NCBI GenBank assembly: GCA_046703825.1
Contig: JBJKSO010000115.1
Location: 1,890-65,889 of the forward strand
From: Candidatus Dormibacteria bacterium
Lineage (GTDB): Bacteria > Chloroflexota > Dormibacteria > Aeolococcales > Bog-877
Direction of reading: 5' to 3'
DNA: 64,000 bases
Part shown: in pieces, positions 18,909 to 53,795 of the stretch
Layout of the letters: each line of letters begins with the position of its first letter
Numbering within the stretch: position 1 is the stretch's first letter
The notes under the pieces: model-generated
What the model saw: only the letters and a program-made list of their open reading frames with translations
What the model was told of the DNA's origin: nothing
Database searches by the model: none
Program-made: the position numbers and the translations under genes

Positions 18909-18910
18909 CG

Positions 18911-19426
18911 TTATGCGGAGTAACTCACGAGGATGTTTCTGACCCAGAGGGTGCTGCCTACCATCTTGTGCTGGTAACGGAACAGCGGCCATGGCGGCGG
19001 GCCACCCACGTTCACTCCTTCGATGCTGTAGAGCCCCCCGTGACACGGGCACAAGAATTGTTGCAGGTTGATATCCCAGTGGACGTCGCACTGCATATGG
19101 GTGCACACGTTGGACAGCGTAATCAGCTGCACCTTCCCGCTGAAGTTGAGTTTTACTACATACACTATTCTCGGGCTGGGCGGCGACGGCCAAGCTTCGC
19201 CGACCGGCAGGTCGACCACATAGGCGGTGGGCAGTCCGACCGGGACTTTGCTGATATCAGCGACCATGACCCAGGGGTGGCGGCGGCGAGCGAAGAGCGG
19301 GCTGATAATTGACCCAACTATCGGGCCGCCGATCAACAGGGTGGTGGCCCCTCCGACGACATTGATACCCATGACCATGAACCGCCGGCGGCTCACCTTG
19401 CGCGTGACGAAACCCTGCTCAGCCAC
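18911..19426 (-). CDS. Rieske [2Fe-2S] iron-sulfur protein with twin-arginine signal
   Basis: Tat motif SRRRFMVMG; Rieske boxes CTHMQC and CPCHGG; GTG start. Confidence 0.85.
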   Translation of the reverse strand: MAEQGFVTRKVSRRRFMVMGINVVGGATTLLIGGPIVGSIISPLFARRRHPWVMVADISKVPVGLPTAYVVDLPVGEAWPSPPSPRIVYVVKLNFSGKVQLITLSNVCTHMQCDVHWDINLQQFLCPCHGGLYSIEGVNVGGPPPWPLFRYQHKMVGSTLWVRNILVSYSA

Positions 19427-19613
19427 TGCCGTTGTGAACTATTCCGATCAGGAGAGCCAACATCATCCCGAGAACGAACAGCGTTGTGTAGGCGGCCGCA
19501 GCGCCCGCATACCACATGACGCCCAGCCCGCCCTCGGCGCTGCGCACACGCCGAAGCCGCCGGAACACCATCCAGCTGGCCATGACCGTGAGGGCGAAGA
19601 ACCCAGTAAACAT
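19419..19613 (-). CDS. small two-helix membrane protein (64 aa), not in standard-size gene calls
   Basis: Sequence MFTGFFALTVMASWMVFRRLRRVRSAEGGLGVMWYAGAAAAYTTLFVLGMMLALLIGIVHNGSG. Two hydrophobic helices with a basic loop. Sits between the CydA-like and Rieske genes, overlapping the Rieske GTG by 8 nt. Confidence 0.35.
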   Translation of the reverse strand: MFTGFFALTVMASWMVFRRLRRVRSAEGGLGVMWYAGAAAAYTTLFVLGMMLALLIGIVHNGSG

Positions 19614-19651
19614 GATCCCCAGATCCCACGCCGATTCAAAGTCCTGATAGT

Positions 19652-20860
19652 TCAAGGCAGGTACCCGCGGGGCGCATTGAAGTTCTGGCGGGCCGAGTGC
19701 AGCGTCAAGAGGCAAGCACTCTGGCCCTGGGGAGCACCGATGGCACAAGGGATCTTCGAGTTCTCTTTGATGATGCCCATGAATAGGGCCAGGGCGAGCG
19801 CGGTCACCCCGACCACGCCGATAACCCCTCTGGCAGCGGGAGCCACCCGCACGCGCGTGTCCATCCTACGAAGGTCCCGAATGTAGATCACCAGGTGAGC
19901 CAGGGTGGCCAGAAACGCTACCGCGAGAGCAGCGTAGCGGAGGGCGACCAGACCCGCCGGGATGATCGAGGCGGGCAGAGCGGTGCCGGCCATTCCCAGC
20001 ACCGCGATCACCGTCAAGACTCCGCCAGGACCCCCGTCCCGCTTCTCGTCGTGGCGCCAGAAGACCCAGTTGGCGCCAATGACGACCACCGCGAGCAGGA
20101 CCACCTGGGCGATGAACAAGTTGCCCGATCCGAGGACGAAGAGGTTGTCGAAGGCCGGCATCTGGGTGTTCTTGAGCGTCTCGGCCAGGAAGAAGCCGCT
20201 GATGGGCTGGGCCATGAGAAAGACGGACCCGATCGCGAAGTTCAGCCGGGCCGCCCAGTGCTGGAACTCGGCATCTGCGGCCGTGGGCGCGCGCCGACCC
20301 CGCCAGACTGCCACGGCGGCCAGGAACAGAGCGGCCCAAGAAAGGTTCCCGAAGGCGTAGTGGAACAGTAGAGGGAAGTAGGTCGGCGAGAAGTTCGCGT
20401 GCGCGGCACTTACCGCTATCCCCGGGTCAAGGATGAAGCTATCCAGGTCAACGATAAAGATAAGAAACACGTACTGCACGACGATGAATGCGAACCCGAC
20501 CGCCAAGTGCAGCTTGGGCGGCAGCTTCTCCCAGCCATAGGAGTACGCCAGCAGCAGCGGGATTCCGATAAAGAAACTCATGAAGGCGATAGTCAGGGGT
20601 ATGAGCAGTTCGTTCAGCATCGTGCCGACCAGGCGACCGTAAAAGCCCGTAAGGAGCACGATGGCGAAGACCGCCCAGGTGGCAGCGAAGCTGTACAAGT
20701 AGAGGACCGAGTGGTTCAACTTGTAGGCGTAGCGCAGGTACATCTGGTTGCCCGTACGGCGACCCATCAACTCCATGCATGGAGTGATGGCGATAGCGGC
20801 CAGGATGAAGGTGACAAGAGCGATATGGATCAGGAAGGTCGCCCCGATCCCCACCTCCAT
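19652..20860 (-). CDS. cytochrome bd subunit I (CydA)-like membrane protein, paralog 1
   Basis: TM1 His (ATFLIHIAL), SYGWEKL (cf. GWDRL), C-terminal MGIIKENSKIPCAI (cf. EYGRQPW). Start taken at ATG 20860; the ORF could extend to 20953. Confidence 0.55.
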   Translation of the reverse strand: MEVGIGATFLIHIALVTFILAAIAITPCMELMGRRTGNQMYLRYAYKLNHSVLYLYSFAATWAVFAIVLLTGFYGRLVGTMLNELLIPLTIAFMSFFIGIPLLLAYSYGWEKLPPKLHLAVGFAFIVVQYVFLIFIVDLDSFILDPGIAVSAAHANFSPTYFPLLFHYAFGNLSWAALFLAAVAVWRGRRAPTAADAEFQHWAARLNFAIGSVFLMAQPISGFFLAETLKNTQMPAFDNLFVLGSGNLFIAQVVLLAVVVIGANWVFWRHDEKRDGGPGGVLTVIAVLGMAGTALPASIIPAGLVALRYAALAVAFLATLAHLVIYIRDLRRMDTRVRVAPAARGVIGVVGVTALALALFMGIIKENSKIPCAIGAPQGQSACLLTLHSARQNFNAPRGYLP

Positions 20861-21020
20861 CCCAAGCCTGCCAAACGGCACCTTGGGGGTAGGCGTCACA
20901 AACCCGATCAGCACTTCGCTCCAATGCTGACGGCACGGCCCCCCCGGTGGCAACTCCCAACGCGAAGACGCAGGCTGGCCGGTCCCATGACCGCGGCCAT
21001 CGCCAACCGATAATCGCCCG

Positions 21021-40015: not shown

Positions 40016-41554
40016 TCAGCGTCGGGCGCCGGTGCGGACCCTGCTTGGCGACTCCTCCGGCACCGTTGGGCTTTCGGTGCTCCGGGGCGAGGTGCTCCTC
40101 GCATTCCCATCGGGAGTTGGCGTCCCCGGTCCGTTCACCGGGCTCGGCAACTCCACGATAAAGGTGGCGCCACCACCGTCAGTGGGCTCCAGCCGGACCG
40201 ATCCGCGATGGGCCGACACGATGGCGGCAACTATCGCCAGGCCCAGACCAGCGCCTCCACTCTCCCTACCACGGGCCGAGCCCGCACGCACGAAGCGCTC
40301 GAAGATCTTCCCCGCCAGCTCCGGCGGCACTCCGGGGCCGTGGTCGACCACCCGGAGCACGGCGGAGGCGCCCTGCTGAGCGACCGACACCTCCACCTGG
40401 GTGCCCGCTGGCGTGTGGACCATCGCATTGCGGATGAGGTTGTTCAGCACCTGGCGGAGCCGCGGCTCATCCCCCATCGCCATCACCGGCGCCGGGGCGC
40501 TCACCCGGATCGGGTGACGGCGGTCCGCGACCGAGGCGTCAGCCGCCGCATCCACGGCCAACTCGGAGAGGTCCACCTGGCGGAGCTGCAGCGGGCGTCC
40601 CTCGTCCAAGCGCGCCAGCAGCAGCATGTCGTCCACCAGCGACGTCATCCGCGCCGATTCCGCCTCGATCCGGGTCATGGCGGTGGAGAGGTCCTCCGGG
40701 TTGGACCCGGCCCCGTGACGGAAGAGCTCGGCGTAGCCGCGGATCGAGCTGAGCGGAGTCCGCAGCTCGTGTGACGCGTCCGCGATGAACTGGCGCAGCT
40801 TCTCCTCGGAGGCCGCCCGGGCGCCGAAAGCCTCCTCGATCTGCCCCAGCATCTCGTTGAGGCTAGCGCTCAGCTGGCCCACCTCGGTGCTGGTGTCCGA
40901 GGTGTCGACCCGGCGGGAGAGGTCCCCTCGAGCAATCGCCTGCGCGGTGTGGCGGATTCGCTCCAAGGGCATGAGCCCGAGCTTGACCGTCCACCAGGCC
41001 AGCAGCGCAACCGTGCCCAGCACGACGGCACTGACCAGAACCTCGAGATTGCGAAGCTGGGCCAGGGTGGTGTTGACGTTGTTGAGCGGGGCCGCCAGCA
41101 CGAGCACCACCGGCGTGCCTGGAGTCGCTCCCTGCCCGGGGGCCTCGAGCAGCTGGTACATCACCCGGTACTCAGCGCCGCTGTAGCAGCGACGGCTGAC
41201 GTCAGCCGGGAAGCTGGAGGCGGTGGTGGTGAACTGCTGAGCGGCATTTGCGCCGTTGAACACGCTCTTGGGAAGTACCGGAGCAGGGGCGTTGTCCGGC
41301 CGGTAGCAGACGGACTGGAGCCCCTGGGACAGGGCGGTGCCGTGCGTCGAATACAGATTGCCCCAGACGCCGGACGGGAAGGCCCCGAATCGGGGCACCG
41401 CCCCTGAAGCAGCGAAGTTGTAGAGGATGGTGGCGGCGTCGCTGCTGCCACTGCTGAGCTGACCGTTCACCTGCTGGCTGAGCGACGACTGCAGGGCCAG
41501 GTAGGTGACCGCGTCCACGGCGGCCAGGCCGACGGCGACCATCGCCACCAGCAC
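40016..41554 (-). CDS. two-component sensor histidine kinase (TM-HAMP-HisKA-HATPase_c)
   Basis: H-box ASHELRTPL; G1/G2 boxes DHGPGVP, GAGLGLAIV. The maximal ORF to 41725 would overlap the response regulator by 141 bp; GTG 41554 or ATG 41542 proposed. Confidence 0.8.
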   Translation of the reverse strand: MLVAMVAVGLAAVDAVTYLALQSSLSQQVNGQLSSGSSDAATILYNFAASGAVPRFGAFPSGVWGNLYSTHGTALSQGLQSVCYRPDNAPAPVLPKSVFNGANAAQQFTTTASSFPADVSRRCYSGAEYRVMYQLLEAPGQGATPGTPVVLVLAAPLNNVNTTLAQLRNLEVLVSAVVLGTVALLAWWTVKLGLMPLERIRHTAQAIARGDLSRRVDTSDTSTEVGQLSASLNEMLGQIEEAFGARAASEEKLRQFIADASHELRTPLSSIRGYAELFRHGAGSNPEDLSTAMTRIEAESARMTSLVDDMLLLARLDEGRPLQLRQVDLSELAVDAAADASVADRRHPIRVSAPAPVMAMGDEPRLRQVLNNLIRNAMVHTPAGTQVEVSVAQQGASAVLRVVDHGPGVPPELAGKIFERFVRAGSARGRESGGAGLGLAIVAAIVSAHRGSVRLEPTDGGGATFIVELPSPVNGPGTPTPDGNARSTSPRSTESPTVPEESPSRVRTGARR

Positions 41555-41583
41555 CAGCAGCAGCCGCAGCCGGAGGGAGAAAC

Positions 41584-42282
<699 letters not shown>

Positions 42283-42622: not shown

Positions 42623-44248
42623 TCAAGGCAGTCCTCGGCGGCGTTGCTGGGACCGCCAGTCGCGGGGCCGTGGCGCAGCGGGAGCGCGCTTCCTTGGCAT
42701 GGAAGAGGTCGCGGGTTCGATTCCCGCCGGCTCCACTCGAGTTTCGTATTCGAACTCGCACACGCTGAAGATGTCGTCGAAGGGCGGCCGGTACTCCTGG
42801 TGGGAGAGCCGGCCGTCTTTGACTTCCAGGCGCTCGAACACCGCGGTGTTGAACATCTTGCGGGTGCGGTCGCTGGCCTTGCGGTAGGCGTCGGCGCAGC
42901 GGGTGGCGAGGGTGGCGGCCAGCTCCAGGATCTCCTGCCACTCGCCGAGGTTGGCGTCGAGGTCGCCGAGCCGGTCCTTGGCGGCGTCGATGTCGGCACC
43001 GATGCGGGCCTGCTCAGTCTTGAGGGTCGGCACGTCGATCGCTCCGGCGTAGTAGGCGTCGAGGAGCTTGTACCGCTGGGCTTCTGCCTTGGCGAGCCGG
43101 CGGGTGAGCAGCTCGCGCTGGGCGGCGTCGGCGCGCTGGCGTTCCACGATCTCGGCTGCCATCTCCTCGCGTAGCCGTTCCGCCCAGGAGGCCGGGAGCT
43201 GGATGCGCTGGTACAGCTCTTCGACCTGGGCTTCGAGGTCCTCGGCTGCGACGTAGCGCTCCCGGCAGGTGCCTTCGGGGTCGTTCTTCTGGCCCAAGCA
43301 GAAGAAGTAGGTGTAGCGGGCCTTGGAATGTTGGATGGAGAGGCGCCGTCCGCACACCCCGCAGTGGAGCAGGCCTTTCAGGTAGTGCGGGTGCTTGCGT
43401 TCGCGGGTGCCCCGCGCGGCGCGGGCGGCGAGCAGCTCTTGGACCCGGCGGAAGGTCTCGGGATCGACGAGCGGCTCGTGGGTGCCAGGGTGTTGCACGC
43501 CGTTCCACTCCACGATGCCGACGTAGACCGGGTTGGCCAGGATCTTGGCCAGGCCCTGCCAGGTGATGGCCTTGGGCATCCGGTCGCGCCGTGCACGGTT
43601 GGTGAGGCCTCGGTGCGCCAGCTCTCCGGCCAGGCGTTGAAGGGTCCACTCGCCCGTGGCGTAGTGCTCGAAGGCGAGCGTGACGAGCGGCGCGCGTTCT
43701 GCGTCGGGCACGATGCGGGCCACCTGGCGACCGGCGGTCACTTCGCGCAGGTTCACGTAGCCGAGTGGGGCGCCGTGGGGGAACCCGCCCATCTTGGCCT
43801 TCTGGCTGAGGCCCTTGCGGATCTCGCTCGCCAGGTTGGCCGAGTAGAACTCAGCCATGAGCGCGTGGATGCCTTCGACCAACCGTCCCGACGCGGTCTC
43901 CTCCACGTTCTCGGTCACCGACACGAGCGCCACGCTGCGGCGTCGCAACAGCGCCCGGATGGCGACGTGGTCTTCCATGTTGCGCGCCAGCCGGTCGATC
44001 TTGTGGACGACCACGGCGTCGACGTCGTGCTCTTCGGCGATGCGGGCCAGCATCTACTTCAGGGCCGGGCGGTCGGCGGACCGCGCCGACTCGCCCCGAT
44101 CGACGTACTCGTCGACGAGGTCCCAGCCGGCGTCGCGGACGTGGCGAGTGCAGGCCTCCCGCTGGGCCGGTATCGAGAAACCCTCCTCGCCCTCGCCCTT
44201 CTCTGCCTGTTCGCGGGTCGACACCCGCAGGTAGATCACACAGCGCAT
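42623..44248 (-). pseudogene. large serine recombinase interrupted by an in-frame TAG at 44054-44056
   Basis: ATG 44248 with AAGGAGG upstream; catalytic MRCVIYLRVSTREQ. Then ...SADRPALK-TAG-MLARIAEEHDVDAVVVHKIDRLARN continues the resolvase domain in the same frame. Recombinase domain and zinc ribbon (CGVCGRRL...C) follow. The 3' end overlaps the tRNA-Ala on the opposite strand. Confidence 0.7.
42664..42735 (+). tRNA. tRNA-Ala (anticodon GGC)
   Basis: Hand-folded cloverleaf: acceptor GGGGCCG/CGGCTCC with G3:U70; D stem GCGC/GCGC; anticodon arm CTTCC-TTGGCAT-GGAAG; T arm GCGGG-TTCGATT-CCCGC; discriminator A. CCA not encoded. Coordinates ±1. Confidence 0.85.
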
Positions 44249-44316
44249 CGCATCAGCCTCCTTTGCCGATCCTCCCATGGGGACTCGTTCTTCGGCGGGG
44301 TGCAAGTCCTTCGTCG

Positions 44317-45237
44317 TCAGCTGGCCTCCTCGTGGCGGTTGCCGTCCTGTTGGCAGCGGGCGGCCCGGGCCAGCCGGGCCAGTGACTCGGCCGGCCGGGG
44401 CCAGCCGGCAAGCTCGGCCAGGCGCACCCGGGTCCCGTCGGCGCCGAGAGGCGCCCAGATGCCCTCTGTCGGCCGGACGGCCATCGGCCGGGTGGTCGTG
44501 GCGGCCGCCAGGCGTTGGCCGGACAGGGCCAAACGTGCGCCGACCTCGCGCCGCGGACCCGGCACCACGACCAACAGCCAGAAGCGGACGCCCCAGGCGG
44601 CCTCGAGCCGGGCGTAGTCGCCGGCCTTCTTTTCGAGCCGGGAGAGCTGCTCGCTGCCCCGGTCGTACTCCAAGCAGAAGGCGACGGTGGCGTCGCCCTC
44701 CCGCCACACCCCGAGGCCGTCGGGGCGGACCACCTCGCCGAGGCGGTCGGTGCAGTAGCGCTCGCCCCACCACGTGGAGAGCTCGGCATCGGGCTTGGTG
44801 CGGGCGGCGGCCACCAGACGGACGAAGAGGTCGTTGGCGCCGACGGTGTGGGCGAGGCGCTGGCTGGTGGCGATCGACATCGCCCAGTCGGTGCGCCAGC
44901 GCATCTTGGGCTCCCGGGTGGGATCGTCGTTCGCCATGGCCGCCACGACGTAGGCGCCGAGGACGTCGAGCACGAAGTGGTACTCGCCTTCCCGGCCGGC
45001 GCGCAGGGGTCGGAAGCGTTCTACGAGACGCAACTCGTGAAGCCGGGTCATCCGGTGCTGGGCGGTGTTGCGGTCACCGAAGAACATCACGTGGATCTGC
45101 GACGTCGTGAGCACTCGATGCCAGCGAAGGAGACGAAGGATGCGTCGATCACGATCGGTCAACGACGAGGCCACGTCCATGATCAACCGGTCCGAGATCC
45201 TCCGCCGCCGGCGAGAAGTCGACGCAGTCATGCACAA
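44317..45237 (-). CDS. replication-relaxation family protein
   Basis: HTH ILRLLRWHRVLTTSQIHVMFFGDRNTAQHRMTRLHELRLVERFRP. Confidence 0.65.
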   Translation of the reverse strand: MCMTASTSRRRRRISDRLIMDVASSLTDRDRRILRLLRWHRVLTTSQIHVMFFGDRNTAQHRMTRLHELRLVERFRPLRAGREGEYHFVLDVLGAYVVAAMANDDPTREPKMRWRTDWAMSIATSQRLAHTVGANDLFVRLVAAARTKPDAELSTWWGERYCTDRLGEVVRPDGLGVWREGDATVAFCLEYDRGSEQLSRLEKKAGDYARLEAAWGVRFWLLVVVPGPRREVGARLALSGQRLAAATTTRPMAVRPTEGIWAPLGADGTRVRLAELAGWPRPAESLARLARAARCQQDGNRHEEAS

Positions 45238-45650
45238 TCACCAATACAGTCGGAGTTCTCCACTGGCGGGGGGAGAGCGGCTCCGACGTGCGAGGACGCG
45301 CTATCAGGAGGGGTCCTCTCTGGAGTGGCGGGAGGACGGACCCCTGAAAGGACCCCTGAACGGACGGGGTGACGGAGCCCCTTCCTTTCCATCCGCAAGG
45401 TGGTCTCGTGCGCCGAGCCCGTGACACGGCGCACCTCACGTCGCTCGGCGTGCACCTCCGCCGCCACCGACAGGAGCGCCCGGGCCAGCGGCCGCAGCGC
45501 ACCCGGCGGTGGCTCGCCAGGCTCACGACGCACGCCGCAACGCTGCGTGTCCGCCGGGTGGCCATCGTGTGCGCAGCACGCGTCGTCCCCACGTTGCCGG
45601 CGACACCCCCACCCGCGCTCACCCGGCTCCGGGGCGGCCGGCTGCCGGGC

Positions 45651-45988
45651 TTGCGGATGATGGGGGTCGGCCGTCGGCGGCCCGGGAGCACGGGCCTCGA
45701 CGTCGAGGGTCTCGGCTTGCGGATGGTGGGGGTCGCCCCCCCGCTGGTCTTGCGGGTGGTGATAGGGCGTCTGGCGACGCTGCGAGGTTGTCCGGGCTCT
45801 CGTCATCGGCCCACCCCCGCGGCGCCGGTCAGCACCTCAACCAAGCGACGGTCGTCGTCGTCCACTGGTGTGCGCCACACCGGCTCGGCGGCGAGGGCAG
45901 GTGCGCGGCTCCCGACGAGGCCGACTGCGATGCGGGGGACCACCGTCTTCATCGCCAACTTGTCGGCGTTGCGAATGGTGGGGGTCTC
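45651..45988. repeat. iteron-like direct repeats TTGCG(G/A)ATG(A/G)TGGGGGTC
   Basis: Copies at about 45651, 45717 and 45969, plus a degenerate copy at about 45749. Confidence 0.5.
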
Positions 45989-46733
45989 CCACGCGGCTCG
46001 AACGGCGTTGAGGATGGCGGCGCGGTGACCCGTCCTCTGCGTCAGCACCAGCACTACGCGCGGCACGCTGGCCGACGCGGCAGCGAGGTAGTCCGCCCAG
46101 CGGGCGACCACCGATGCCAGGCGCGGCGCTGGGATGCGATCGACTCTGGCGCAGAGCACCGCCTCGATCTCCGCGCCAGCGCCGACATGCGCCGTGAGCT
46201 CGGCATCACCCGAGAGGCGCCGTTCCTCACCGGTGCGCCGGTCTGCATCCGTGACGCCGGCCGTTCGGCGACACCAGGCGGTCACCACCAGCCCGATGGT
46301 GGGACCGTGGTCCAAGAGCCCGAGCCAGAGGTCTCAGAGCTGCACCCGTCCGCAGGCCGGACAGGTCCTCGCTCCAGGGCCGCGGTGGCTCGGTGCCGAC
46401 CGCAGCGGCCCCGAACGGGGTGAGCCAGACGTGGTAGGGGCAGGTGCCGATGGCCGCCTGAGGTCGGTGGCGGTTGACCAGTCCGGCGCTGTAGAGGACA
46501 CCGAGGCGGTGCTGAACGGTCCGCTCGGGCATCCCGGTGAGCCGGACGAGTTGGCTGGTCGTGAGCGCCTCGTGCTCGCGGAGCAGCGTGAGCAGGTGCC
46601 GGTCGACCGGCCGGAGCGTGCCGGGTGGTACTGCCCCCGGAGTGCCCCGGATCGAGTCAAGCGGGGGCTGAACGCAGACTGGTCGCGACGACGCACGCGA
46701 CCGATCGTTCGCTGACGTGGGGTTTTGGAACAT
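45803..46733 (-). pseudogene. second replication-relaxation family paralog, apparently frameshifted
   Basis: The N-terminal HTH LLTLLREHEALTTSQLVRLTGMPERTVQHRLGVLYSAGLVNRHRP is in one frame (46733..~46230). A C-terminal region resembling the paralog continues in another frame (46315..45803). Confidence 0.45.
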
Positions 46734-46897
46734 GATGCCGTGCCCTGCCGGCCGAGCAAGCGCCTCGAACGATGGAGGAGACCTCGATCGGGTCGCGAAG
46801 TCAAGGGGTTTTCGAAGATTTTCTTGTCCGGCCCGGGTGGATGCGAAGATGTCCTACCGGCGCACTTGCGCCGCTCCCGACGCCGAGGCCCCCATTC

Positions 46898-48295
46898 ATG
46901 CTGCTCACGATCTCGACCGACCACTCCCCGGCCACCGATCTCGGGTACTTGCTGCACAAGAACCCCTCCGCGCACCACTGCGCTGACTTCGGCTTCGGTC
47001 GAGCCCATGTCGTCTACCCCGAGGCGAGCAATGAGCGCTGCACCGCGGCTGTCGTGGTCGACGTCGACCCGGTTGGACTGGTCCGTCGCCGCGGTCCGAG
47101 GGGCAATGACTTCTCTCTAGGCCAGTACGTCAACGATCGCCCCTATGCGACCTCGTCCTTCATGTCCGTGGTCCTGGGCAAGGTGTTCTCCACCGCGATG
47201 GCAGGGAGAAGCAAGGAGCGCCCCGAGCTGGTCGAACAGGCCATGCCCTTCGAGGTTCGTCTGCCCGTGACGCCCTCTCGTGGCGGCGAGGAGGTCGCAC
47301 ACAGACTCTTCGAGCCCCTTGGCTATGAGGTCACAGCACAGGCCATCCCGCTCGACCCGCGGTTCCCGGAGTGGGGGGCCAGCCAGTACGTAGACCTCAC
47401 CTTGAGGGCAACCGTGACCCTCAAAGGGCTGCTGGAGCACCTTTTCGTCCTCCTGCCCGTGCTCGACGACGACAAGCACTACTGGGTGGGGCAAGACGAG
47501 ATCGACAAGCTGCTGCGAAGAGGCAGCGACTGGCTGTCCGGACACCCAGAGCGCGAGCTCATCACGCGCCGCTACCTGCGCCATGACCGTCAGCTCACCC
47601 GGGAGGCCCTGGGCCGGCTCATGGAGGAGGACCTGGAAGATCCCGACGAGGCGGAGGCCCGGTACGACGCTCAAGAGCAGGCAGTCGAAAAGCCGATCAA
47701 CCTGAACCAGCAACGACTCGACGCCGTCCTTCAAGCCATCCGCGCCAATGGCGCCCGCCGAGTCCTCGATCTCGGCTGCGGCGAGGGGAAGCTACTGGGC
47801 GAGCTGCTCCGTGTGCAGGGCATCGAACAGGTCGTGGGAATGGACGTCTCGTTTCGCATTCTCGAGGTCGCTGCCCAGCGTCTCCACCTCGACACCATGG
47901 CGCCGAGCCAACGTGCCAGGGTCGATCTCCTCCAAGGATCCCTCACCTATCGCGACGCCCGCTTGGTCGGCTTCGACGCCGCCGCACTGGTGGAGGTGAT
48001 CGAACACCTCGATCCTTCTCGGCTCGGGAGCTTCGAGCGCGCCGTCTTCGCCTACGCCCGACCGTCGACCGTGATCGTCACCACGCCCAACGTCGAATAC
48101 AACGCCCGCTTCGACTCCTTGCCGGCCGGCGCATTCCGCCATCGTGACCACCGTTTCGAGTGGACGAGGGCGGAGTTCACCAACTGGTGTGAACAGATAG
48201 GCGCCCGGCACGGCTACGCGGTGGTCCTCTCCGGCATAGGGCCCAAGGATGCGACCGTAGGGCCTCCCACCCAGATGGCGGTGTTCAGCAGATGA
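46898..48295 (+). CDS. hen1: 3'-terminal RNA ribose 2'-O-methyltransferase Hen1
   Basis: MLLTISTDHSPATDLGYLLHKNPS N-terminus; SAM-binding VLDLGCGEGKLLGELL; 4-nt overlap with the downstream pnkp. Confidence 0.85.
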   Translation: MLLTISTDHSPATDLGYLLHKNPSAHHCADFGFGRAHVVYPEASNERCTAAVVVDVDPVGLVRRRGPRGNDFSLGQYVNDRPYATSSFMSVVLGKVFSTAMAGRSKERPELVEQAMPFEVRLPVTPSRGGEEVAHRLFEPLGYEVTAQAIPLDPRFPEWGASQYVDLTLRATVTLKGLLEHLFVLLPVLDDDKHYWVGQDEIDKLLRRGSDWLSGHPERELITRRYLRHDRQLTREALGRLMEEDLEDPDEAEARYDAQEQAVEKPINLNQQRLDAVLQAIRANGARRVLDLGCGEGKLLGELLRVQGIEQVVGMDVSFRILEVAAQRLHLDTMAPSQRARVDLLQGSLTYRDARLVGFDAAALVEVIEHLDPSRLGSFERAVFAYARPSTVIVTTPNVEYNARFDSLPAGAFRHRDHRFEWTRAEFTNWCEQIGARHGYAVVLSGIGPKDATVGPPTQMAVFSR

Positions 48296-50829
48296 CCGCC
48301 CTGAAGATCCCGGAGCTCTGCGTCGTGGCGCTCGTAGGGGTGACCGGCTCGGGCAAGTCGACCTTCGCGGCCCGCCATTTCCTGCCAACCGAAGTCCTGT
48401 CCTCCGACTTCTGCCGAGGTCTGGTCGCCGACGAGGAGAACGACCAGACGGCCACGAATGCTGCCTTCGACGTGCTCTACTACATCGCCGGCAAGCGCCT
48501 CGAAGCAGGGCGACTGACCGTGGTGGACGCCACCAACGTGCAGGCCGAAGCCCGGCGATCCGTGGTCAACCTAGCCAGGGCGAACAACGTCCTGGCGGTG
48601 GCGATCGTGCTCGACGTGCCCGAAGAGGTATGCGCTGCTCGCAATGCATCGCGCTCCGACCGCCAATTCGGATCACACGTGCTGCGCAACCAGCGCAGCC
48701 AGCTCCGCCGCTCGATGCGGGGACTGCGCCGTGAAGGGTTCCACCGGGTGTACCACCTGAAGGACGAAGAAGAGATCGCCGCGGCCACCTTTGAGCGTGA
48801 GCCGCTCTGGAACGACCGACGGAGCGATCACGGGCCCTTCGACATCATCGGCGACGTACACGGATGCCACGAAGAGCTAACGGGGCTTCTCACCGCCCTC
48901 GGCTACGAGATCGACCCCGACGGGCCTTCGGCCCGTCACCCCCATGGCCGTCGGGCAGTCTTCCTTGGCGACCTGGTCGACCGAGGACCGGCGACGCCGG
49001 CCGTGCTGCGGCTTGTCATGGGCATGACCGGCGAGGGGAGCGCCCTGTGCATCCCCGGCAACCACGAGGTGAAGCTGCTTCGAGCGCTGAACGGCCGCAA
49101 CGTCACCACCGGTCATGGCCTCGCCCAGAGCCTCGAACAACTCGCCGCGGAACCGCCGGAGTTCTCTAAGCGGGTCGCCTCGTTCCTCGATGGTCTGATC
49201 AGTCACTTCGTGCTCGATGAGGGGCGACTCGTGGTAGCGCACGCCGGACTCCCAGCCAACATGCAAGGGCGCGCCTCCGCGACGGTCCGCTCGTTCGCTC
49301 TCTACGGCGACACGACGGGAGAGACCGACGAATACGGCCTGCCGGTGCGCTACCCGTGGGCAGAGGACTATCGAGGAGAGGCCACGGTCGTCTACGGCCA
49401 CACGCCCGTACCCGAAGCGGTCTGGCTGAACCGGACGATCTGCATCGATACCGGCTGCGTCTTCGGAGGCCAGCTCACGGCCCTGCGCTACCCCGAACGC
49501 GAGCTGGTCTCTGTGCCAGCGAAGGAGGTCTACTACGAGCCAGTCAGACCGCTCGCGTCGACTCCAGCCGATGAGGCACGCGAACCTGCCGACCTGGACC
49601 TCGATGACGTCCTCGGCAAGCGAATAATCGAGGCCCGCTTGGCCGGCACCGTCACGATCCGCGAGGAGAACGCCGCCGCTGCCCTCGAGGTCATGAGCCG
49701 GTTCGCCGTCGACCCACGATGGCTCGTCTATCTCCCTCCGACGATGTCCCCTACGGCGACCTCGGACCGGGAGGGGCTGCTCGAACATCCCCACGAGGCC
49801 TTCGCTGCCTTTCGGGCCGCCGGCGTTCGCACCGTGGTATGCGAGGAGAAACACATGGGGTCTCGAGCCGTCGTCGTAGCGTGCCGGGACGCCTCGGTCG
49901 CATCACGACGCTTCGGAATCGATGCGCCCTCAGGCGGCGTCGTGTTCACCCGGACCGGTCGCCCCTTCTTTGCCGACGCGGAGATGGAAGCCGCCTTCCT
50001 GGCCAAAGTGCGCGCCGCCGTATCGGTGACGGGTCTCTGGGAGGAGCTCGCCAGTGATTGGGTCGTGCTCGACTGCGAGCTTCTCCCATGGTCCGCCAAG
50101 GCGGAGGACCTCTTGCGTCAGCAGTACGCCGCAGTGGGCGCCGCCGCGAGGCGAGCGGTGCGCGCCGAGGACGCAGTCGTCCAAGCGGTAGCTGCACGGG
50201 GCGTTGACGTCGCCGATCTCACTGCCGAGATGGGCGAGCGCGCCGCCATGGTGGATGGATTCGTTACCGCATATGGGCACTACTGCTGGCCGGTTGAATC
50301 CGTTGACGACCTCAAACTCGCCCCATTCCAAGTCCTAGCCGGGGAAGGATCGGTCCACGCCCTCCGGGACCACCCGTGGCATCTGGAACTGCTCAGGCGC
50401 CTCGCTGATGCCGACCCGACGACGTTCCGGGCCACCAAAGCCATCACCGTGGAGGTGGAAGACAAGACCTCCTGCGAGGCTGGAACCGAGTGGTGGGAGG
50501 AGATGACCAGCCGGGGAGGCGAGGGCATGGTGGTGAAGCCGGTCGACGCCGTTCACCGTGGCCCCAAGGGCTTGGCGCAGCCCGGCATCAAAGTGCGCGG
50601 TCGGGAGTACCTCAGGATCATCTATGGCCCCGAGTACACGGCCGAACGACACCTGTCGCGTCTCCGCGCCCGTGGCCTCGGGCATAAGCGCTCCCTCGCC
50701 ATCCGCGAGTACTCCCTTGGCATCGAGGCGCTGGAACGGTTCGTCGCCGGAGAACCGCTCTACCGTGTGCATGAGTGCGTGTTCGGTGTTCTCGCCTTGG
50801 AGAGCGAGCCGGTCGACCCACGGCTATAG
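48292..50829 (+). CDS. pnkp: polynucleotide kinase-phosphatase Pnkp (kinase / metallophosphoesterase / ligase-like adenylyltransferase)
   Basis: P-loop GVTGSGKST; phosphoesterase motifs GDVHGC, GDLVDRGP, GNHE; C-terminal ligase-like domain around CEEKHMGSRAV. Confidence 0.85.
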   Translation: MTALKIPELCVVALVGVTGSGKSTFAARHFLPTEVLSSDFCRGLVADEENDQTATNAAFDVLYYIAGKRLEAGRLTVVDATNVQAEARRSVVNLARANNVLAVAIVLDVPEEVCAARNASRSDRQFGSHVLRNQRSQLRRSMRGLRREGFHRVYHLKDEEEIAAATFEREPLWNDRRSDHGPFDIIGDVHGCHEELTGLLTALGYEIDPDGPSARHPHGRRAVFLGDLVDRGPATPAVLRLVMGMTGEGSALCIPGNHEVKLLRALNGRNVTTGHGLAQSLEQLAAEPPEFSKRVASFLDGLISHFVLDEGRLVVAHAGLPANMQGRASATVRSFALYGDTTGETDEYGLPVRYPWAEDYRGEATVVYGHTPVPEAVWLNRTICIDTGCVFGGQLTALRYPERELVSVPAKEVYYEPVRPLASTPADEAREPADLDLDDVLGKRIIEARLAGTVTIREENAAAALEVMSRFAVDPRWLVYLPPTMSPTATSDREGLLEHPHEAFAAFRAAGVRTVVCEEKHMGSRAVVVACRDASVASRRFGIDAPSGGVVFTRTGRPFFADAEMEAAFLAKVRAAVSVTGLWEELASDWVVLDCELLPWSAKAEDLLRQQYAAVGAAARRAVRAEDAVVQAVAARGVDVADLTAEMGERAAMVDGFVTAYGHYCWPVESVDDLKLAPFQVLAGEGSVHALRDHPWHLELLRRLADADPTTFRATKAITVEVEDKTSCEAGTEWWEEMTSRGGEGMVVKPVDAVHRGPKGLAQPGIKVRGREYLRIIYGPEYTAERHLSRLRARGLGHKRSLAIREYSLGIEALERFVAGEPLYRVHECVFGVLALESEPVDPRL

Positions 50830-50990
50830 CTCGTCTTCGACCGCGGCCCCTGATCGGGTCACAAATTCCGCACGAGCTGGCCAATCTGCTCCCGCAACTG
50901 TCCCGGGTTCGAATAACGACAACTCAACACCACTTGACGTGGGCCCATACGAACCGGCTTCGGGCTTGAGGGATCGAGCTCCGATGCCGC

Positions 50991-51380
50991 TCAGCGCCCC
51001 CGTGGTTCGCTGCCGGCCCACAGGACGATCCGCCAGCCCGCGTCCGACCGGAGAAATACCGCGACCAATCGATAAGGCACTGGCATCGCTTCGCCCGGCT
51101 GGGTCACTTCACCCTCGGCAGCGAGCCACGCGACGTCGCCACGGATGCTGAGCTGCCGTTCAGGGAAGGTGAACCGATACCCCTCAGGTTTCGTATAGAG
51201 CCGATCGAGGAACGCGGCCACCTCATCGAGGCCGACGGCAGCCTCCCCGCTCTCCGAGCCCAGCACAGACACTTCGCGGTCGGTGGAAAAGCAGACCAGG
51301 GTCTGCGGGAGGTCACGGGCGGCAATCGCCGCGAGGACCGCATCCAAGACCTCCTCCGGGGCCCCCGGGTGGGCGCTCAT
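50991..51380 (-). CDS. SnoaL-like / NTF2-fold (DUF4440-like) protein
   Basis: 129-aa NTF2-like pattern; ATGA coupling to vapC upstream. Confidence 0.55.
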   Translation of the reverse strand: MSAHPGAPEEVLDAVLAAIAARDLPQTLVCFSTDREVSVLGSESGEAAVGLDEVAAFLDRLYTKPEGYRFTFPERQLSIRGDVAWLAAEGEVTQPGEAMPVPYRLVAVFLRSDAGWRIVLWAGSEPRGR

Positions 51381-51772
51381 CCAAGCGCCGATTGCAGCTC
51401 GGTGTGGCCGAAGTCGTCCCCCTTGAACAGCAACGGCTCCCCGGTAGCTCGCGACAATGCGTACGCGAAGCAATCGCCGAAGTTGAGCTGCGCCGGATGA
51501 CCGCTACCTTTCCCGAAGTCGCGGTAGGCGCGACGTGCGATCTCGGCGTGCTGCTGGGTCACCGGCTCAACATGAATCTGCGACGTGGAGAGCAGATCGT
51601 CGAGGTGGCGGCTGAGCACGGGGTCGCCGTTCAGATCGATGATGACGCCCGCCTCGATGTAGTTCCCGGCCGAGATCTTCGGTCCCACCGCTGCGGCAAG
51701 TGCAGCCACGTAGCGGTCCGCGTCGGGCTCGTCCCGCAATATGGCGACGAGGGCGGAGGTATCGACGATCAA
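51377..51772 (-). CDS. vapC: type II toxin VapC (PIN domain ribonuclease)
   Basis: MIVDTSALVAIL... with PIN acidic residues. Confidence 0.8.
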   Translation of the reverse strand: MIVDTSALVAILRDEPDADRYVAALAAAVGPKISAGNYIEAGVIIDLNGDPVLSRHLDDLLSTSQIHVEPVTQQHAEIARRAYRDFGKGSGHPAQLNFGDCFAYALSRATGEPLLFKGDDFGHTELQSALG

Positions 51773-52032
51773 CTGGGCAACCCATGTTCATCGTAGAGAA
51801 GGGCGCCGTGCTCGGCACTCCGGTACGGCTCGACCCACCTTCTGGCCGCGTCCTCACCGATCTCGCGGAGACGAGCGGCGCGCTCGCCGACTTCCGAATC
51901 CCGGCTACCCCGCACCCGATCGAGACGCTCTCGGAGGGCGACCGTCACGGCTCGGGTCAAGGTCTCACCGGTCGTGCCGGCGAGTACCCGAGCCAGGCGT
52001 TCCGCTTCCGCACTCTTGATGTTGAGGCTCAT
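51769..52032 (-). CDS. vapB: type II antitoxin VapB (ribbon-helix-helix type)
   Basis: 87 aa, MSLNIKSAEAERLARVLAG...; 4-nt overlap with vapC. Confidence 0.7.
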   Translation of the reverse strand: MSLNIKSAEAERLARVLAGTTGETLTRAVTVALRERLDRVRGSRDSEVGERAARLREIGEDAARRWVEPYRSAEHGALLYDEHGLPS

Positions 52033-52141
52033 GGAGGAAGTCTACCATAGCTAGGGTTCCATTCTACCAATCCGCGTGAGGGAGTGAAGATCCCGTGGCC
52101 GACGGCGCGCTTGCTGGATGGTGCTTCCCGCCACGCTCGTC

Positions 52142-52172
52142 CGGCGGTTCGTATCCGGAGGCATCACCTCCA
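52142..52172 (+). repeat. direct repeat copy 1 (GCGGTTCGTATCCGG-N-GGCATC-N-CCTCCA)
   Basis: 27 of 29 nt identical to the copy at about 53311-53339. Confidence 0.4.
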
Positions 52173-52559
52173 CCAACCAACCAGTCCGCCACCGCCGCCA
52201 GGGCCGCCGAGCTGCGGAAATGTCTTCTGGCAGCGGGGCGCGCATCAGCGCCAACTCGCCGAGTCGCTCGTCACGGGGGGCCGCGGTTCGCGCTCGTAAC
52301 CGGCGGGGAGCTGAGCCGCTCCATTACGCGGCGGATGGCGGTCCCGCCACCGAAGTTCTGCGGCGCAGTCGGACCTGATCGCTTATCTCATCGGAGCCGG
52401 CGCTGATCCGGACGCCTGGGACAAAAGCGGCGTCGCGAGCGACTGGATCCGCGACCTGTCGGGGACCCACTGAACAACTCATGGGCCACGGCGCCCGTCG
52501 CCTGGCCGGCAAGCCCTCGCCGGTCTGGTGTCTCGGCCGGCGCCCGGCACGGGCCAGGC

Positions 52560-52925
52560 TCAGCGGAGTTGACGCACCCTCCCCGCCGAGCCCCAACTCG
52601 CATCAGCCGTCCATACGTCGACGTCCAAACGCTCGCCGAGGGCAAGGCATAGCCGGTCGGCAAGGGACAAGCCTTCGCCTTTCCGCCACCGGCGGGCCGC
52701 CCATTCGGCGTCGCCCGCGACGACTGCTTCAATCGTGAGGTCGTAGCTGACTAGCAGTGCCCTCACCAGGTCCCAGTCCCGGCCCGCGGCGCGGATCTTC
52801 TGAGCAACCTCCGACCAGTTGGCGGCGCCACACGTGGCGCCACCAACTAGGACGCTCTCAACCTCGTTGCTGCCTTCCTCCCCCTGGGCGAAGGCAAGCA
52901 GGACTGAAGCGTCAACGACGCTCAC
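52560..52925 (-). CDS. vapC: type II toxin VapC (PIN domain)
   Basis: MSVVDASVLLAF...; 121 aa. Confidence 0.75.
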   Translation of the reverse strand: MSVVDASVLLAFAQGEEGSNEVESVLVGGATCGAANWSEVAQKIRAAGRDWDLVRALLVSYDLTIEAVVAGDAEWAARRWRKGEGLSLADRLCLALGERLDVDVWTADASWGSAGRVRQLR

Positions 52926-53167
52926 GCTGCATCCTCATTAGTTGCCGCCGCACGGCGCTCGGCGAGGAGCTCGCCGACAAGGTTGAGACCCGAGAGTTCC
53001 TCTCGCACGCGGTCGCGCAGTTGTCGCTGGGTCATCAGGACCATCCCCGACGGCGTCTCGAGCAGGACAAGCGTCGCGCCTGCGACGAGGCCCGCTCGCT
53101 GGCGCACCTCGGCTGGCACCACCAGCCGACCCCTGTCACCCACAACTACCTTGTGCGTACCACTCAT
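52922..53167 (-). CDS. vapB: type II antitoxin, AbrB/MazE/SpoVT-fold (VapB)
   Basis: MSGTHKVVVGDRGRLVVPAEVRQRAGL...; ATGA overlap with vapC. Confidence 0.7.
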   Translation of the reverse strand: MSGTHKVVVGDRGRLVVPAEVRQRAGLVAGATLVLLETPSGMVLMTQRQLRDRVREELSGLNLVGELLAERRAAATNEDAA

Positions 53168-53310
53168 GTGGCGATCGTACCACCTCGGTCCACCGAGTGG
53201 GCCGTCTGAGCCGGCGACCGGGCGAGCGCTGCTCGCCCGCACTGTCGGCGACGTGGGACCTTGGGTTTCCTGCGGAGGACCCGAACCCAGGGACCCGCGA
53301 TGCTTGGTAC

Positions 53311-53339
53311 GCGGTTCGTATCCGGCGGCATCCCCTCCA
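53311..53339 (+). repeat. direct repeat copy 2
   Basis: See copy 1. Confidence 0.4.
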
Positions 53340-53795
53340 GGGGCGACCAGCCCTTGTGCAGCCCCACCCAGAGGACGCAACGAGGCCACTACCGCCCGGC
53401 TGTTCACCGCGCGTGACGTGTACGCGGAGATGGTGTCCGCGGAAACCGGCTGGGCGGAGTCGACGGTGTTGAAGACGATGCAGCGGATGAAGTTGGCTCC
53501 AAAGCGTCCGCCGACGGTAAATCGGGAGCGGGCGGAGCCAGACGGGTTCCAGATCATCGATGACGAGTTCGCCGATCGCCACGCCACGCGCATCCGGCGA
53601 TTGAGGACCCCTTGACCCGCGTGGATCGGGCCCTTCGGTGGCGCATTCCGGGGCGCCGCTTCGCACTGGGGACCGCGGGGCCAGGGCTCTCCGAAGCGGC
53701 TCTTGTCACTCGGAACGACGCACTTCGCTTTGGGATGGCTCGGATCCGAAGCGAGTACTCGGAGACTCGCTAACCCGCTGGGACTGCGAGCGTGG

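Follow-up and report, generated by a model that had tools for sequence, protein, structure and literature searches.

In the window, a stretch of 64,000 nucleotides from a Candidatus Dormibacteria bacterium, a tRNA-Ala(GGC) gene is followed by the features collected in Table 1. All those listed in an initial annotation of this region were found, the ankyrin fragments with sub-threshold matches (E 0.0056 and 0.09). The tRNA is intact, its CCA is not genome-encoded, and it carries the core CCAC at 42733-42736. The large serine recombinase (LSR) gene beside it encodes a resolvase domain with the catalytic-Ser motif YLRVSTREQ, a Recombinase domain and a zinc ribbon (PF00239, PF07508 and PF13408, all above cutoffs); its best NCBIfam neighbours are CcrB (115 bits) and CcrC (103 bits), both far under the equivalog cutoffs (900 bits). 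The protein is 92% identical to, and colinear with, the intact 591-aa LSR of a related contig (L165), and its last conserved codons are ...EFEYETR. It is inactivated by an in-frame TAG downstream of the catalytic motif, at a position occupied by E, Q or A in homologs and by Glu in L165. As had been reported, the LSR coding end overlaps the tRNA on the opposite strand: the ORF crosses the entire tRNA antisense and stops at 42623. This read-through tail is not a conserved protein, the tRNA-antisense tails of homologs being different and variable in length.

Table 1. Features at the tRNA-Ala(GGC) locus, in window positions
Feature	Position	Strand	Basis or remark
tRNA-Ala(GGC)	42664..42736	+	ARAGORN; Rfam tRNA 67.7 bits; attB-derived half of attL
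Read-through tail of integrated LSR ORF (VEPAGIEPATSS...*)	42623..42736	-	antisense of tRNA, translation
LSR gene body, pseudogene	42737..44278	-	Pfam Resolvase/Recombinase/Zn_ribbon_recom
In-frame TAG in LSR	44054..44056	-	translation; single assembly
Replic_Relax paralog 1 (RR1), intact	44317..45237	-	PF13814 E 4e-46
Two iterons (LSR-sense GACCCCCRYCATCCGCAAG), 66 nt apart, RR2-RR1 spacer	45648..45734	.	repeat search
Replic_Relax paralog 2 (RR2) pseudogene	45803..46733	-	tblastn with intact RR2 proteins switches frame
Conserved core module end (GAAAATCTTCG...CCCCTTGACTTC, -35-like RR2 promoter region)	46797..46823	-	anchored alignment of 15 loci
hen1, 465 aa, cargo, intact	46898..48295	+	TIGR04074 equivalog 705 bits (cutoff 340); Hen1_L and methyltransferase domains
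pnkp, 845 aa (kinase, phosphatase, ligase), cargo, intact	48292..50829	+	TIGR04075 equivalog 1407 bits (cutoff 750)
Detached last LSR exon (VVLSCRYSNPGQLREQIGQLVRNL*)	50859..50933	-	in-frame reconstruction; distal att arm at 50907-50933, its first 27 nt
SnoaL_3 gene, vapC-1 (PIN), vapB-1 (Rv0623-like), outside element	50991..52032	-	absent from all six sister copies
D3-1, candidate orphan distal arm/tail exon, second LSR subfamily	52146..52172	+	encodes ..VEVMPPDTNRRTS.. in LSR sense
vapC-2 (PIN) and AbrB/MazE-type antitoxin, outside element	52560..53167	-	domain search
D3-2, second candidate orphan distal arm	53313..53339	+	encodes ..LEGMPPDTNRVPS..

RR1 combines a winged-helix region with a PD-(D/E)XK-type motif (H..PDG.GVW..FCLEYDRG.E) that is invariant in the family, PD..E.D being kept; its fold class is taken from PMC3424549. 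RR2 has one frameshift at ~46315-46326, mapped against intact copies. Iteron-like repeats begin at 45648, 45714 and 45966, the third (45966-45986) being degenerate, and their position and 33/66-nt spacing are conserved in at least 15 family loci. In the anchored alignment, information content rises at the end of this core module, and the cargo slot begins beyond it. The element's proteins gave no match to a known relaxase family, and the RR1 PD-(D/E)XK-type motif adjoins the conserved iterons; the two Replic_Relax genes and the iterons may replicate or mobilise the excised circle.

The Hen1-Pnkp pair is intact, as initially annotated. Both proteins pass the equivalog cutoffs and are full length against Pfam, the NCBIfam equivalogs and solved structures, with all structural modules matched: PDB matches cover residues 1-227 and 259-464 of Hen1 and the kinase (4-171), phosphatase (172-418) and ligase (435-845) of Pnkp. 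The true start of hen1 is 46898, and the two genes are adjacent and co-oriented, with a 4-nt overlap. This order of overlapping genes, the three Pnkp modules, and a Hen1 with an N-terminal ligase-activating domain and a C-terminal 2'-O-methyltransferase are those of the Pnkp-Hen1 system that heals, 2'-O-methylates and seals RNA breaks with 2',3'-cyclic-phosphate and 5'-OH (PMC3675462). The cassette may benefit the host or the element through repair and 2'-O-methylation of ribotoxin-cut tRNAs.

The extent of the mobile unit was read from six independent contigs (L165-L170) that align to the window solely over 42731/5-50933, at 88-93% nucleotide identity; these are metagenome assemblies, in which contigs may be broken or wrongly joined where a repeat ends. 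Their Pnkp proteins are 95-97% identical, both flanks of the copies are unrelated to the window's and also differ from contig to contig, and the homology of all six breaks off exactly at 50933, with different DNA beyond. Because the six contigs share the exact unit with unrelated flanks on both sides, hen1-pnkp is real cargo, and it is the only cargo. The unit thus delimited (42737-50933, 8,197 bp) starts directly at the tRNA-Ala end and contains, in this order, the LSR gene with its TAG, RR1, the iterons, the frameshifted RR2, hen1, pnkp and the 27-nt distal att arm; attL and attR (50933|50934) are both defined at base-pair resolution. Five of the six sister copies have no recognisable tRNA alongside, so that their sites are secondary, tandem or degenerate. 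The presence/absence comparison that had been suggested also yielded an orthologous locus without the element, in a distant relative (L163); it has the same tRNA-Ala(GGC), identical in sequence, and its synteny with the window ends at the tRNA. The nearest ortholog of the flanking kinase is ~60% identical. It is the sister copies that limit the unit to 42737-50933.

An LSR-driven element integrated at tRNA-Ala, as first annotated, is upheld, although not its extent of 42623-53600. We believe that 42737-50933 is very probably one copy of an 8.2-kb site-specific integrative element, with an LSR, two Replic_Relax genes flanking iterons, and hen1-pnkp exactly filling a 4-kb cargo slot. The LSR TAG and the RR2 frameshift, both noticed before, have in all likelihood immobilised it while leaving hen1-pnkp intact. 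A copy with only two lesions, colinear with intact relatives, does not establish the "old, fixed island" of the initial annotation.

The att architecture was then compared across the family. The canonical 27-nt distal arm occurs once in the window (50907-50933; none expected by chance), starting 77 nt past the pnkp stop, and 29 bp separate that stop from the stop of the tail exon. When the LSR end is joined to the arm, an in-frame conserved tail ([VE][VL]L.CRYSN..LR.QL..L*) results in all eight elements tested, and the joined, unsplit form was seen directly at two loci (L171/P0020 and L018). Thirty-three loci have the LSR directly against the 3' end of a tRNA gene (Ala, Gly, Val, Leu, Gln) or of the tmRNA gene. 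Measured from the junction, NTCGAAC lies 15 nt away in every target and 20 nt away in every arm, and the first 4 nt of the arm are those of its target in 12 of 12 elements; arms are ~27 nt long, and the sequence common to the junctions is CCAC alone (in L167, AC alone). These data suggest that the attP used by the LSR spans the 3' end of the LSR gene and is recombined with the very 3' terminus of a tRNA or tmRNA gene; the crossover probably has A73-C74 as its central dinucleotide. One attP arm is the LSR coding end (..GAGTTCGAATACGAAACTCGA); the other (GTGGTGTTGAGTTGTCGTTATTCGAAC) mimics the tRNA acceptor/T-arm, with TTCGAAC placed 5 nt further from the crossover. Integration leaves the tRNA intact, creates no direct repeat and detaches the last ~24 LSR codons, which come to lie 8 kb away at attR, so that the integrated ORF runs into the antisense strand of the tRNA; on excision the gene would be whole again. 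Within the window no tRNA segment was found a second time, in line with the initial annotation, which had left the far boundary undefined; the distal arm now supplies that boundary. The missing duplication is not a product of decay, because the family appears to recombine at the last tRNA bases (A73-C74) and never duplicates the tRNA end. An element family whose recombinase gene is split at each integration was not found in the literature searched.

Since sister-copy homology stops at 50933, the SnoaL gene, both vapBC modules, the direct repeats and the ankyrin debris, previously counted as features of the element, lie outside it. In each vapBC pair a PIN toxin gene lies directly downstream of, and overlaps, a small antitoxin gene (PIN E 3e-14 and Rv0623-like antitoxin E 3e-24 in the first; PIN E 1e-8 with an AbrB/MazE-type antitoxin in the second), and these are neighbours of the element. 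The short direct repeat (D3) is present in two copies, with none expected by chance. As a complement to the main reading, 50934-53339 might, we suggest tentatively, hold what is left of two older elements that belonged to a second LSR subfamily and were displaced outward as later elements inserted at the tRNA (attP x attL accretion), each keeping its distal arm and vapBC cargo and having lost its recombinase core. Each D3 copy lies just distal to a vapBC pair and, like canonical arms, imitates a 3' end of the Ala/tmRNA type with 5 nt added; D3 encodes ..MPPDTNR.. in LSR sense, which resembles the tail of a database LSR (P0068, ..GGPNTNRAPVV). Moreover, tandem arms or LSR-to-arm junctions occur at L014, L017, L018 and L037, and accretion of the same kind is found in Dehalococcoides (PMC3146451). 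However, none of the 82 loci scanned has the D3 motif, just one database tail resembles it, no recombinase remnant was seen besides a weak ~25-nt resemblance next to 50934, and LSRs are not known to recombine attP with attL.

It is very unlikely that the entire 42.6-53.6 kb is one element whose cargo also includes the SnoaL gene, the two vapBC modules and the ankyrin genes. Islands typically contain toxin-antitoxin modules and pseudogenes, the GC profile proposed as a check does give a GC3 of 0.71-0.80 over 46.8-54 kb versus 0.82-0.88 in the left flank, and synteny with L163 resumes nowhere right of the tRNA; yet all six sister copies lose homology at 50933, where the downstream DNA differs, and the cognate LSR tail exon, with its stop codon, is at 50859-50933. 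Even less probable is a mobile unit formed by the 4.1-kb LSR-RR1-RR2 core alone, inserted between tRNA-Ala and a hen1-pnkp that was already there and natively adjoined the tRNA. Family-wide conservation does end ~17 nt upstream of the RR2 -35-like box, with hen1 beginning 74 bp past that end, hen1-pnkp is found in none of 78 genome LSR loci, and in relatives that lack the LSR a tRNA or tmRNA lies shortly upstream of hen1 (L094, 52 bp; L091, 2.5 kb; L093, a tRNA array). This reading is nevertheless already contradicted by the six sister copies, which carry LSR through pnkp as a single block to 50933, by the position of the canonical distal arm after pnkp, and by two loci (L017 and L036) that have 3.5 kb in common past RR2 and sit at different tRNAs. 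A prophage, phage satellite or actinomycete integrative conjugative element (AICE) is just as improbable, for although many phages and some AICEs encode LSRs, and such elements typically integrate at the tRNA side, the 8.2 kb contain no capsid, terminase, FtsK-like Tra or Rep (RepSA, RepAM or Prim-Pol) gene and have no relatives in the viral contig collection.

The 8.2-kb integrative element shares with integrative mobilizable elements (IMEs) an integrase of its own, defined att sites and the lack of conjugation machinery, neither Tra/FtsK nor T4SS genes having been found in it. Complete elements of the family measure 6.4-8.5 kb, and LSR homologs number > 3,700, mostly in Acidimicrobiales-type MAGs. 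The association with hen1-pnkp is lineage-specific, because in one element (L002) a decayed hen1-pnkp lies just beyond the distal arm and 80 more distant Pnkp loci have neither LSR nor arm. Here the cassette is the sole load of a defined site-specific mobile element targeting tRNA genes; carriage by a defined mobile element is not mentioned in PMC3675462.

The closest known system appears to be the ssrA-specific genomic islands of Dehalococcoides, with their LSR DsiB integration module (McMurdie et al. 2011, PMC3146451). In both, LSR gene and target RNA gene are convergent, the 3' end of the LSR gene overlaps attL and its stop codon comes from the target or from an adjacent island, variable cargo lies beyond a conserved integration module beside the target, and transfer genes are lacking (IME-like); tandem arrays with the newest island nearest the target are counted as a further likeness (PMC3146451). 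Insertion of the Dehalococcoides islands falls midway within the tmRNA T-loop and leaves a 20-bp direct repeat, whereas our element has its junction at A73-C74, after C74, and no tRNA-end repeat in the window; their accessory genes are DsiA/ParB/Mom instead of two Replic_Relax paralogs and iterons, and a conserved detached tail exon, demonstrated in our family, is a speculation for them (PMC3146451). Unlike them, the family targets many tRNAs as well as tmRNA, and of the ssrA-GI module (dsiA, dsiB, parB, mom) neither a second small serine recombinase nor ParB was found.

Serine recombinases integrating at tRNA genes have been called rare (PMC3218068; bioRxiv 10.1101/2020.12.28.424599). Examples are the Mycobacterium AICEs at tRNA-Leu and the phage phiRSM at tRNA-Ser (Ghinet et al. 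2011, PMC3218068), as well as the minority of tycheposons that bear an LSR (bioRxiv 10.1101/2020.12.28.424599). These are conjugative, filamentous-phage or replicative elements, each described at one tRNA target or a few tRNA/tmRNA sites, and the text consulted mentions for them neither a Replic_Relax module nor a split recombinase gene nor an attP arm that mimics a tRNA end. Staphylococcal SCC (CcrA/CcrB/CcrC) is, like our element, small, cargo-carrying and without transfer genes of its own; it integrates at the 3' end of the protein-coding gene rlmH/orfX and, unlike our element, has neither Replic_Relax genes nor a split recombinase gene. In the SSV1-type archaeal integrase, attP lies inside the integrase gene, which is partitioned by integration at a tRNA gene and restored by excision. 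That enzyme is a tyrosine recombinase split into two large parts, whereas the one described here is a serine recombinase that loses just ~24 C-terminal codons.

All the features that the initial annotation had listed at this locus were confirmed, and their positions are collected in the table below. The tRNA-Ala(GGC), identified by both ARAGORN and Rfam, was the only tRNA that ARAGORN found in the window, and the Rfam scan of the window yielded nothing else. The large serine recombinase (LSR), encoded on the minus strand, carries Resolvase, Recombinase and Zn_ribbon_recom domains, and its open reading frame extends antisense across the entire tRNA gene to a stop at 42623. The products of hen1 and pnkp match every solved module of the Clostridium and Anabaena enzymes. 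Carrying two lesions and an intact RNA-repair cargo, the window's copy is a family member that was disabled recently. In a window of about 68% G+C, the composition profile showed no sharp GC signature, and the GC3 of LSR and of the Replic_Relax paralog RR1 (0.88-0.89) was equal to or above that of the host. A patch of lower G+C (0.60-0.62) at 16000-21000, with genes for cytochrome b and cytochrome-bd-like membrane proteins, probably owes its composition to membrane proteins and not to an island.

Features of the tRNA-Ala locus and its right-hand side (window positions)
Feature	Position	Strand	Remarks
tRNA-Ala(GGC)	42664-42736	+	ARAGORN, Rfam
In-frame TAG interrupting LSR	44054-44056	-	
RR1 (Replic_Relax paralog)	44317-45237		intact; upstream of LSR, LSR sense
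RR2 (Replic_Relax paralog)	45803-46733		one frameshift; upstream of LSR, LSR sense, beyond repeat-bearing spacer
hen1	true start 46898		full length, above NCBIfam equivalog cutoff
pnkp	48292-50829		full length, above NCBIfam equivalog cutoff
Distal att arm	50907-50933		just after pnkp stop
D3-1 (27-nt repeat)	52146-52172		
D3-2 (27-nt repeat)	53313-53339		

The extent of the mobile unit was given by six sister contigs (L165-L170) found by a Pnkp search (proteins 95-97% identical), all of which carry LSR-RR1-RR2-hen1-pnkp. When compared by blastn with the whole window, the six produced one block, from 42731/5 to 50933, at 88-93% identity; homology stopped exactly at 50933 in every one of them, and the flanks were unrelated to the window on both sides and differed from contig to contig. 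Therefore, the mobile unit is the 8,197 bp segment 42737-50933, with hen1-pnkp filling its cargo slot. The LSR is intact in L165 (591 aa) and split by an IS630-type insertion in L167, L168 and L169; the transposase (DDE_3) lies at 3773-4759 of L167 and likewise within the LSR of the other two, and these three contigs have a common right flank and different left flanks. The intact sister element of L165 (3181-4500) abuts a fragment resembling a tmRNA 3' end (..CACCTCCAC), with no tmRNA gene nearby, and has an AbiTii abortive-infection gene beside it.

We had initially favoured a smaller unit, a 4.1-kb LSR-RR1-RR2 core inserted beside a pre-existing hen1-pnkp, because family-wide conservation in related genomes ends about 17 nt upstream of the -35-like box preceding RR2, a point that in the window is 74 bp from hen1, and because hen1 lies directly downstream of a tRNA or tmRNA in several LSR-free relatives. 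This was rejected since L017 and L036, two loci at different tRNA-Gly genes, have 3.5 kb beyond RR2 in common (95% identity), and the short motif that ends this shared DNA was found again in many loci and recurs after pnkp. Read in the LSR sense, the canonical distal arm is GTGGTGTTGAGTTGTCGTTATTCGAAC, which is present once in the window, with 0 occurrences expected by chance. As to the cargo of the 8,197 bp unit, neither LSR nor distal arm was found at 80 more distant Pnkp loci (L083-L162), so that the association with hen1-pnkp is specific to the lineage of the window's element. In L002, on contig JBBELT010000254.1, the resident element has a decayed hen1-pnkp just outside its distal arm; both genes (L002:1-3224; 333 and 593 aa) seem to be truncated, and between them and the arm is a fused RHH-PIN gene. 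In other loci hen1 was close to RNA genes: 12 tRNA genes within 3 kb directly upstream of hen1-pnkp (L093:4947-7932), a tRNA-Val 52 bp upstream of hen1 (L094) and a tmRNA 2.5 kb upstream (L091). The location of RNA-repair genes beside tRNA genes may be a separate pattern.

At the tRNA-Ala junction (attL), host sequence ending in CCAC is followed by TCGNGTTYCGTATTCGAAC, and at the distal junction (attR, between 50933 and 50934) GTTCGAATAACGACAACTCAACACCAC precedes the flank. In one copy the host side retained AC only, and we infer from the sequences a putative central dinucleotide at A73-C74. Family-wide, NTCGAAC lay 15 nt from the junction in every tRNA/tmRNA target and 20 nt from it in every distal arm, and the first 4 nt of the arm were those of its own target in 12/12 elements (GTGG for Ala, Leu and tmRNA; GAGC for Gly). 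According to Rutherford, Van Duyne and colleagues, the zinc-ribbon-domain motif of serine integrase sites reportedly lies about 5 bp further out in attP than in attB. For an empty-site comparison, exact matching of the LSR fragment and of the flanking kinase yielded no contig. Since the nearest orthologs of this kinase were only about 60% identical, a distant relative (L163) was used as the unoccupied locus. It was syntenic with 30.0-42.3 kb of the window, and synteny broke exactly at the tRNA, which was identical in sequence, had no encoded CCA and was followed by an unrelated trailer. Thus, integration costs the tRNA nothing. Moreover, LSRs 90-92% identical have different targets, namely tRNA-Ala-GGC (window), tmRNA (L007) and tRNA-Ala-CGC (L008), and therefore the element cannot supply part of the tRNA.

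The initial annotation had found no duplicated tRNA 3' segment. When we scanned the whole window, allowing up to 3 mismatches, neither the tRNA 5' and 3' segments nor the attL flank proved to be repeated; this LSR family makes no such repeats. In L002 and L004, nothing useful came of a search for inverted repeats pairing with the LSR end. On the host side of the distal junction of L004 (4972-5032) there are tandem partial copies of the true tRNA-Gly 3' end (GAGCGGCTGAAGGTGCGT, twice, plus fragments), possibly scars that earlier events left at the site.

When the LSR 3' end was joined to the distal arm of the same element, an in-frame tail with a stop codon was obtained in 8/8 cases, as in the window (...EFEYETR followed by VVLSCRYSNPGQLREQIGQLVRNL and the stop) and in L004 (...FEYGTR followed by ELLCCRYSNPRVMREQLDELIRRL and the stop). 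The joined form also exists in actual assemblies, in L171 (protein P0020) and, with a 1-nt indel, in L018. These results show that integration detaches the last 24 or so codons of the LSR gene, which explains why, as already noticed in the initial annotation, the recombinase coding end overlaps the tRNA. In L018 a second LSR end is joined to another arm, forming a tandem array: both LSR 3' ends (11480-11560 and about 16442) join a distal arm instead of a tRNA in a head-to-tail arrangement, and at the first junction the indel breaks the frame of the tail.

More than 3,700 homologs of the repaired LSR were found, many at 60-93% identity; their C-termini all consist of ...FEYxxxVE, then xxG[ILF]EP (the tRNA T-arm translated antisense) and then variable junk. 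A third tail type, ..VRSSRLGL[TS]W.., was observed in P0027, P0051 and P0086 and suggests a further distal-arm class in the subfamily inserting after an encoded CCA. Most of the 78 genomic LSR loci compared came from Acidimicrobiales-type MAGs; Dormibacterota, Thermoleophilia and Coriobacteriia contributed some. At 33 scanned loci the LSR was convergent with a tRNA (Ala, Gly, Val, Leu, Gln) or tmRNA gene and abutted its 3' end; among the more distant relatives, several had a gene for tRNA-Pro, -Met or -Ile directly downstream of the LSR. A viral contig collection contained no relatives of the element. The nearest relatives of the element were in Acidimicrobiales-type or 'Actinomycetes bacterium' MAGs and those of the flanking histidine kinase (40016-42282) mostly Candidatus Dormibacteria; spread of the element across phyla is possible.

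RR1, with an invariant H..PDG..EYDRG.E signature, lies next to the LSR on its upstream side in almost every close relative, and RR2 is conserved only in its winged-helix part. The spacer between them conserves 1-4 copies of the iteron GACCCCCRYCATCCGCAAG, spaced 33 or 66 nt apart. Replic_Relax proteins have been classed as HTH plus PD-(D/E)XK (PMC3424549). No phage or conjugation genes were found in the element, and we infer for RR1, RR2 and the iterons a putative role in replication or mobilisation of the excised circle. A 192-codon ORF between RR1 and RR2 was discarded as a gene, its translation being Arg/Pro-rich and of low complexity and the homologous ORF of L167 having no Pfam match; the interval was treated as non-coding iteron spacer.

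The closest described system is the integration module of the Dehalococcoides ssrA-GI, whose LSR gene (dsiB) likewise overlaps attL. However, that module differs in insertion point, accessory genes and target range and, unlike the family of the window, leaves a direct repeat; therefore, the element is not an ssrA-GI member. Serine-recombinase integration at tRNA genes has been termed rare (PMC3218068), and the limited collection of literature searched contained no description of this LSR family. Tentatively, and with considerable doubt, offset-mimic retargeting, attL re-use, a tail-swap switch and a tRNA-repair cargo could jointly represent an integration logic that has not been described before. 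In it, the attP arm would be a mimic of the tRNA 3' end offset by 5 bp, and changing about 4 nt beside the crossover would retarget the recombinase to almost any tRNA/tmRNA end. Recognition would be mainly through the tRNA half-site, so that an occupied site (attL) could be used again, generating tandem islands. Integration would replace the conserved 24-aa C-terminal tail of the LSR with junk, and this swap might act as a built-in switch between free and integrated states, controlling activity or directionality. Hen1-Pnkp, the sole cargo in the window's lineage, would repair tRNA, the class of molecule whose gene the element occupies.

The att sites at base-pair level and the recognition rule (tRNA-end mimic, +5 offset, 4-nt match) concern a very large uncharacterised serine integrase family, whose natural targets, tRNA/tmRNA 3' ends, exist in every bacterium, making it attractive as a source of integration tools. 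In addition, a site-specific mobile element can carry a Pnkp-Hen1 RNA-repair cassette and nothing else as cargo. This implies that RNA repair is selected for directly, for example as a defence against anticodon nucleases or other ribotoxins, and such carriage is a route for the patchy distribution of Pnkp-Hen1. The recurring annotation of variable-length recombinase ORFs that overlap tRNA genes is also explained as an artefact, and a mechanism is offered for the build-up of islands beside tRNA genes where neither tyrosine integrases nor direct repeats are involved.

On the right-hand side, pnkp is followed by a SnoaL_3 gene, two PIN/antitoxin pairs, weak ankyrin fragments and the two D3 copies, beyond which lies a TetR/FAD-monooxygenase pair. 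Neither SnoaL nor the ankyrin debris belongs to the element, and the same holds for vapBC-1 and vapBC-2. D3 mimics an Ala/tmRNA-type 3' end with 5 extra nt and, in the LSR sense, encodes ..MPPDTNR.., like the tail of the database LSR P0068. It was discarded as a family-wide att arm, being absent from 82/82 loci scanned, and by its sequence is a candidate arm of another LSR subfamily. Tandem arms are present in other loci, and the D3 copies may plausibly be what is left of two older elements that were shifted outward when further insertions followed, as happened in the Dehalococcoides ssrA islands (PMC3146451). Just past D3-2, a plus-strand gene fragment (53370-53615) encodes ..ARLFTARDVYAEMVSAETGWAESTVLKTMQRM.. 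and has no Pfam match. Finally, the interval of 57 nt (50934-50990) that separates the SnoaL stop from the attR junction contains, in the LSR sense, CCGGTTCGTATGG, which weakly resembles an LSR 3' end and may be the last trace of the recombinase gene of a previous occupant.
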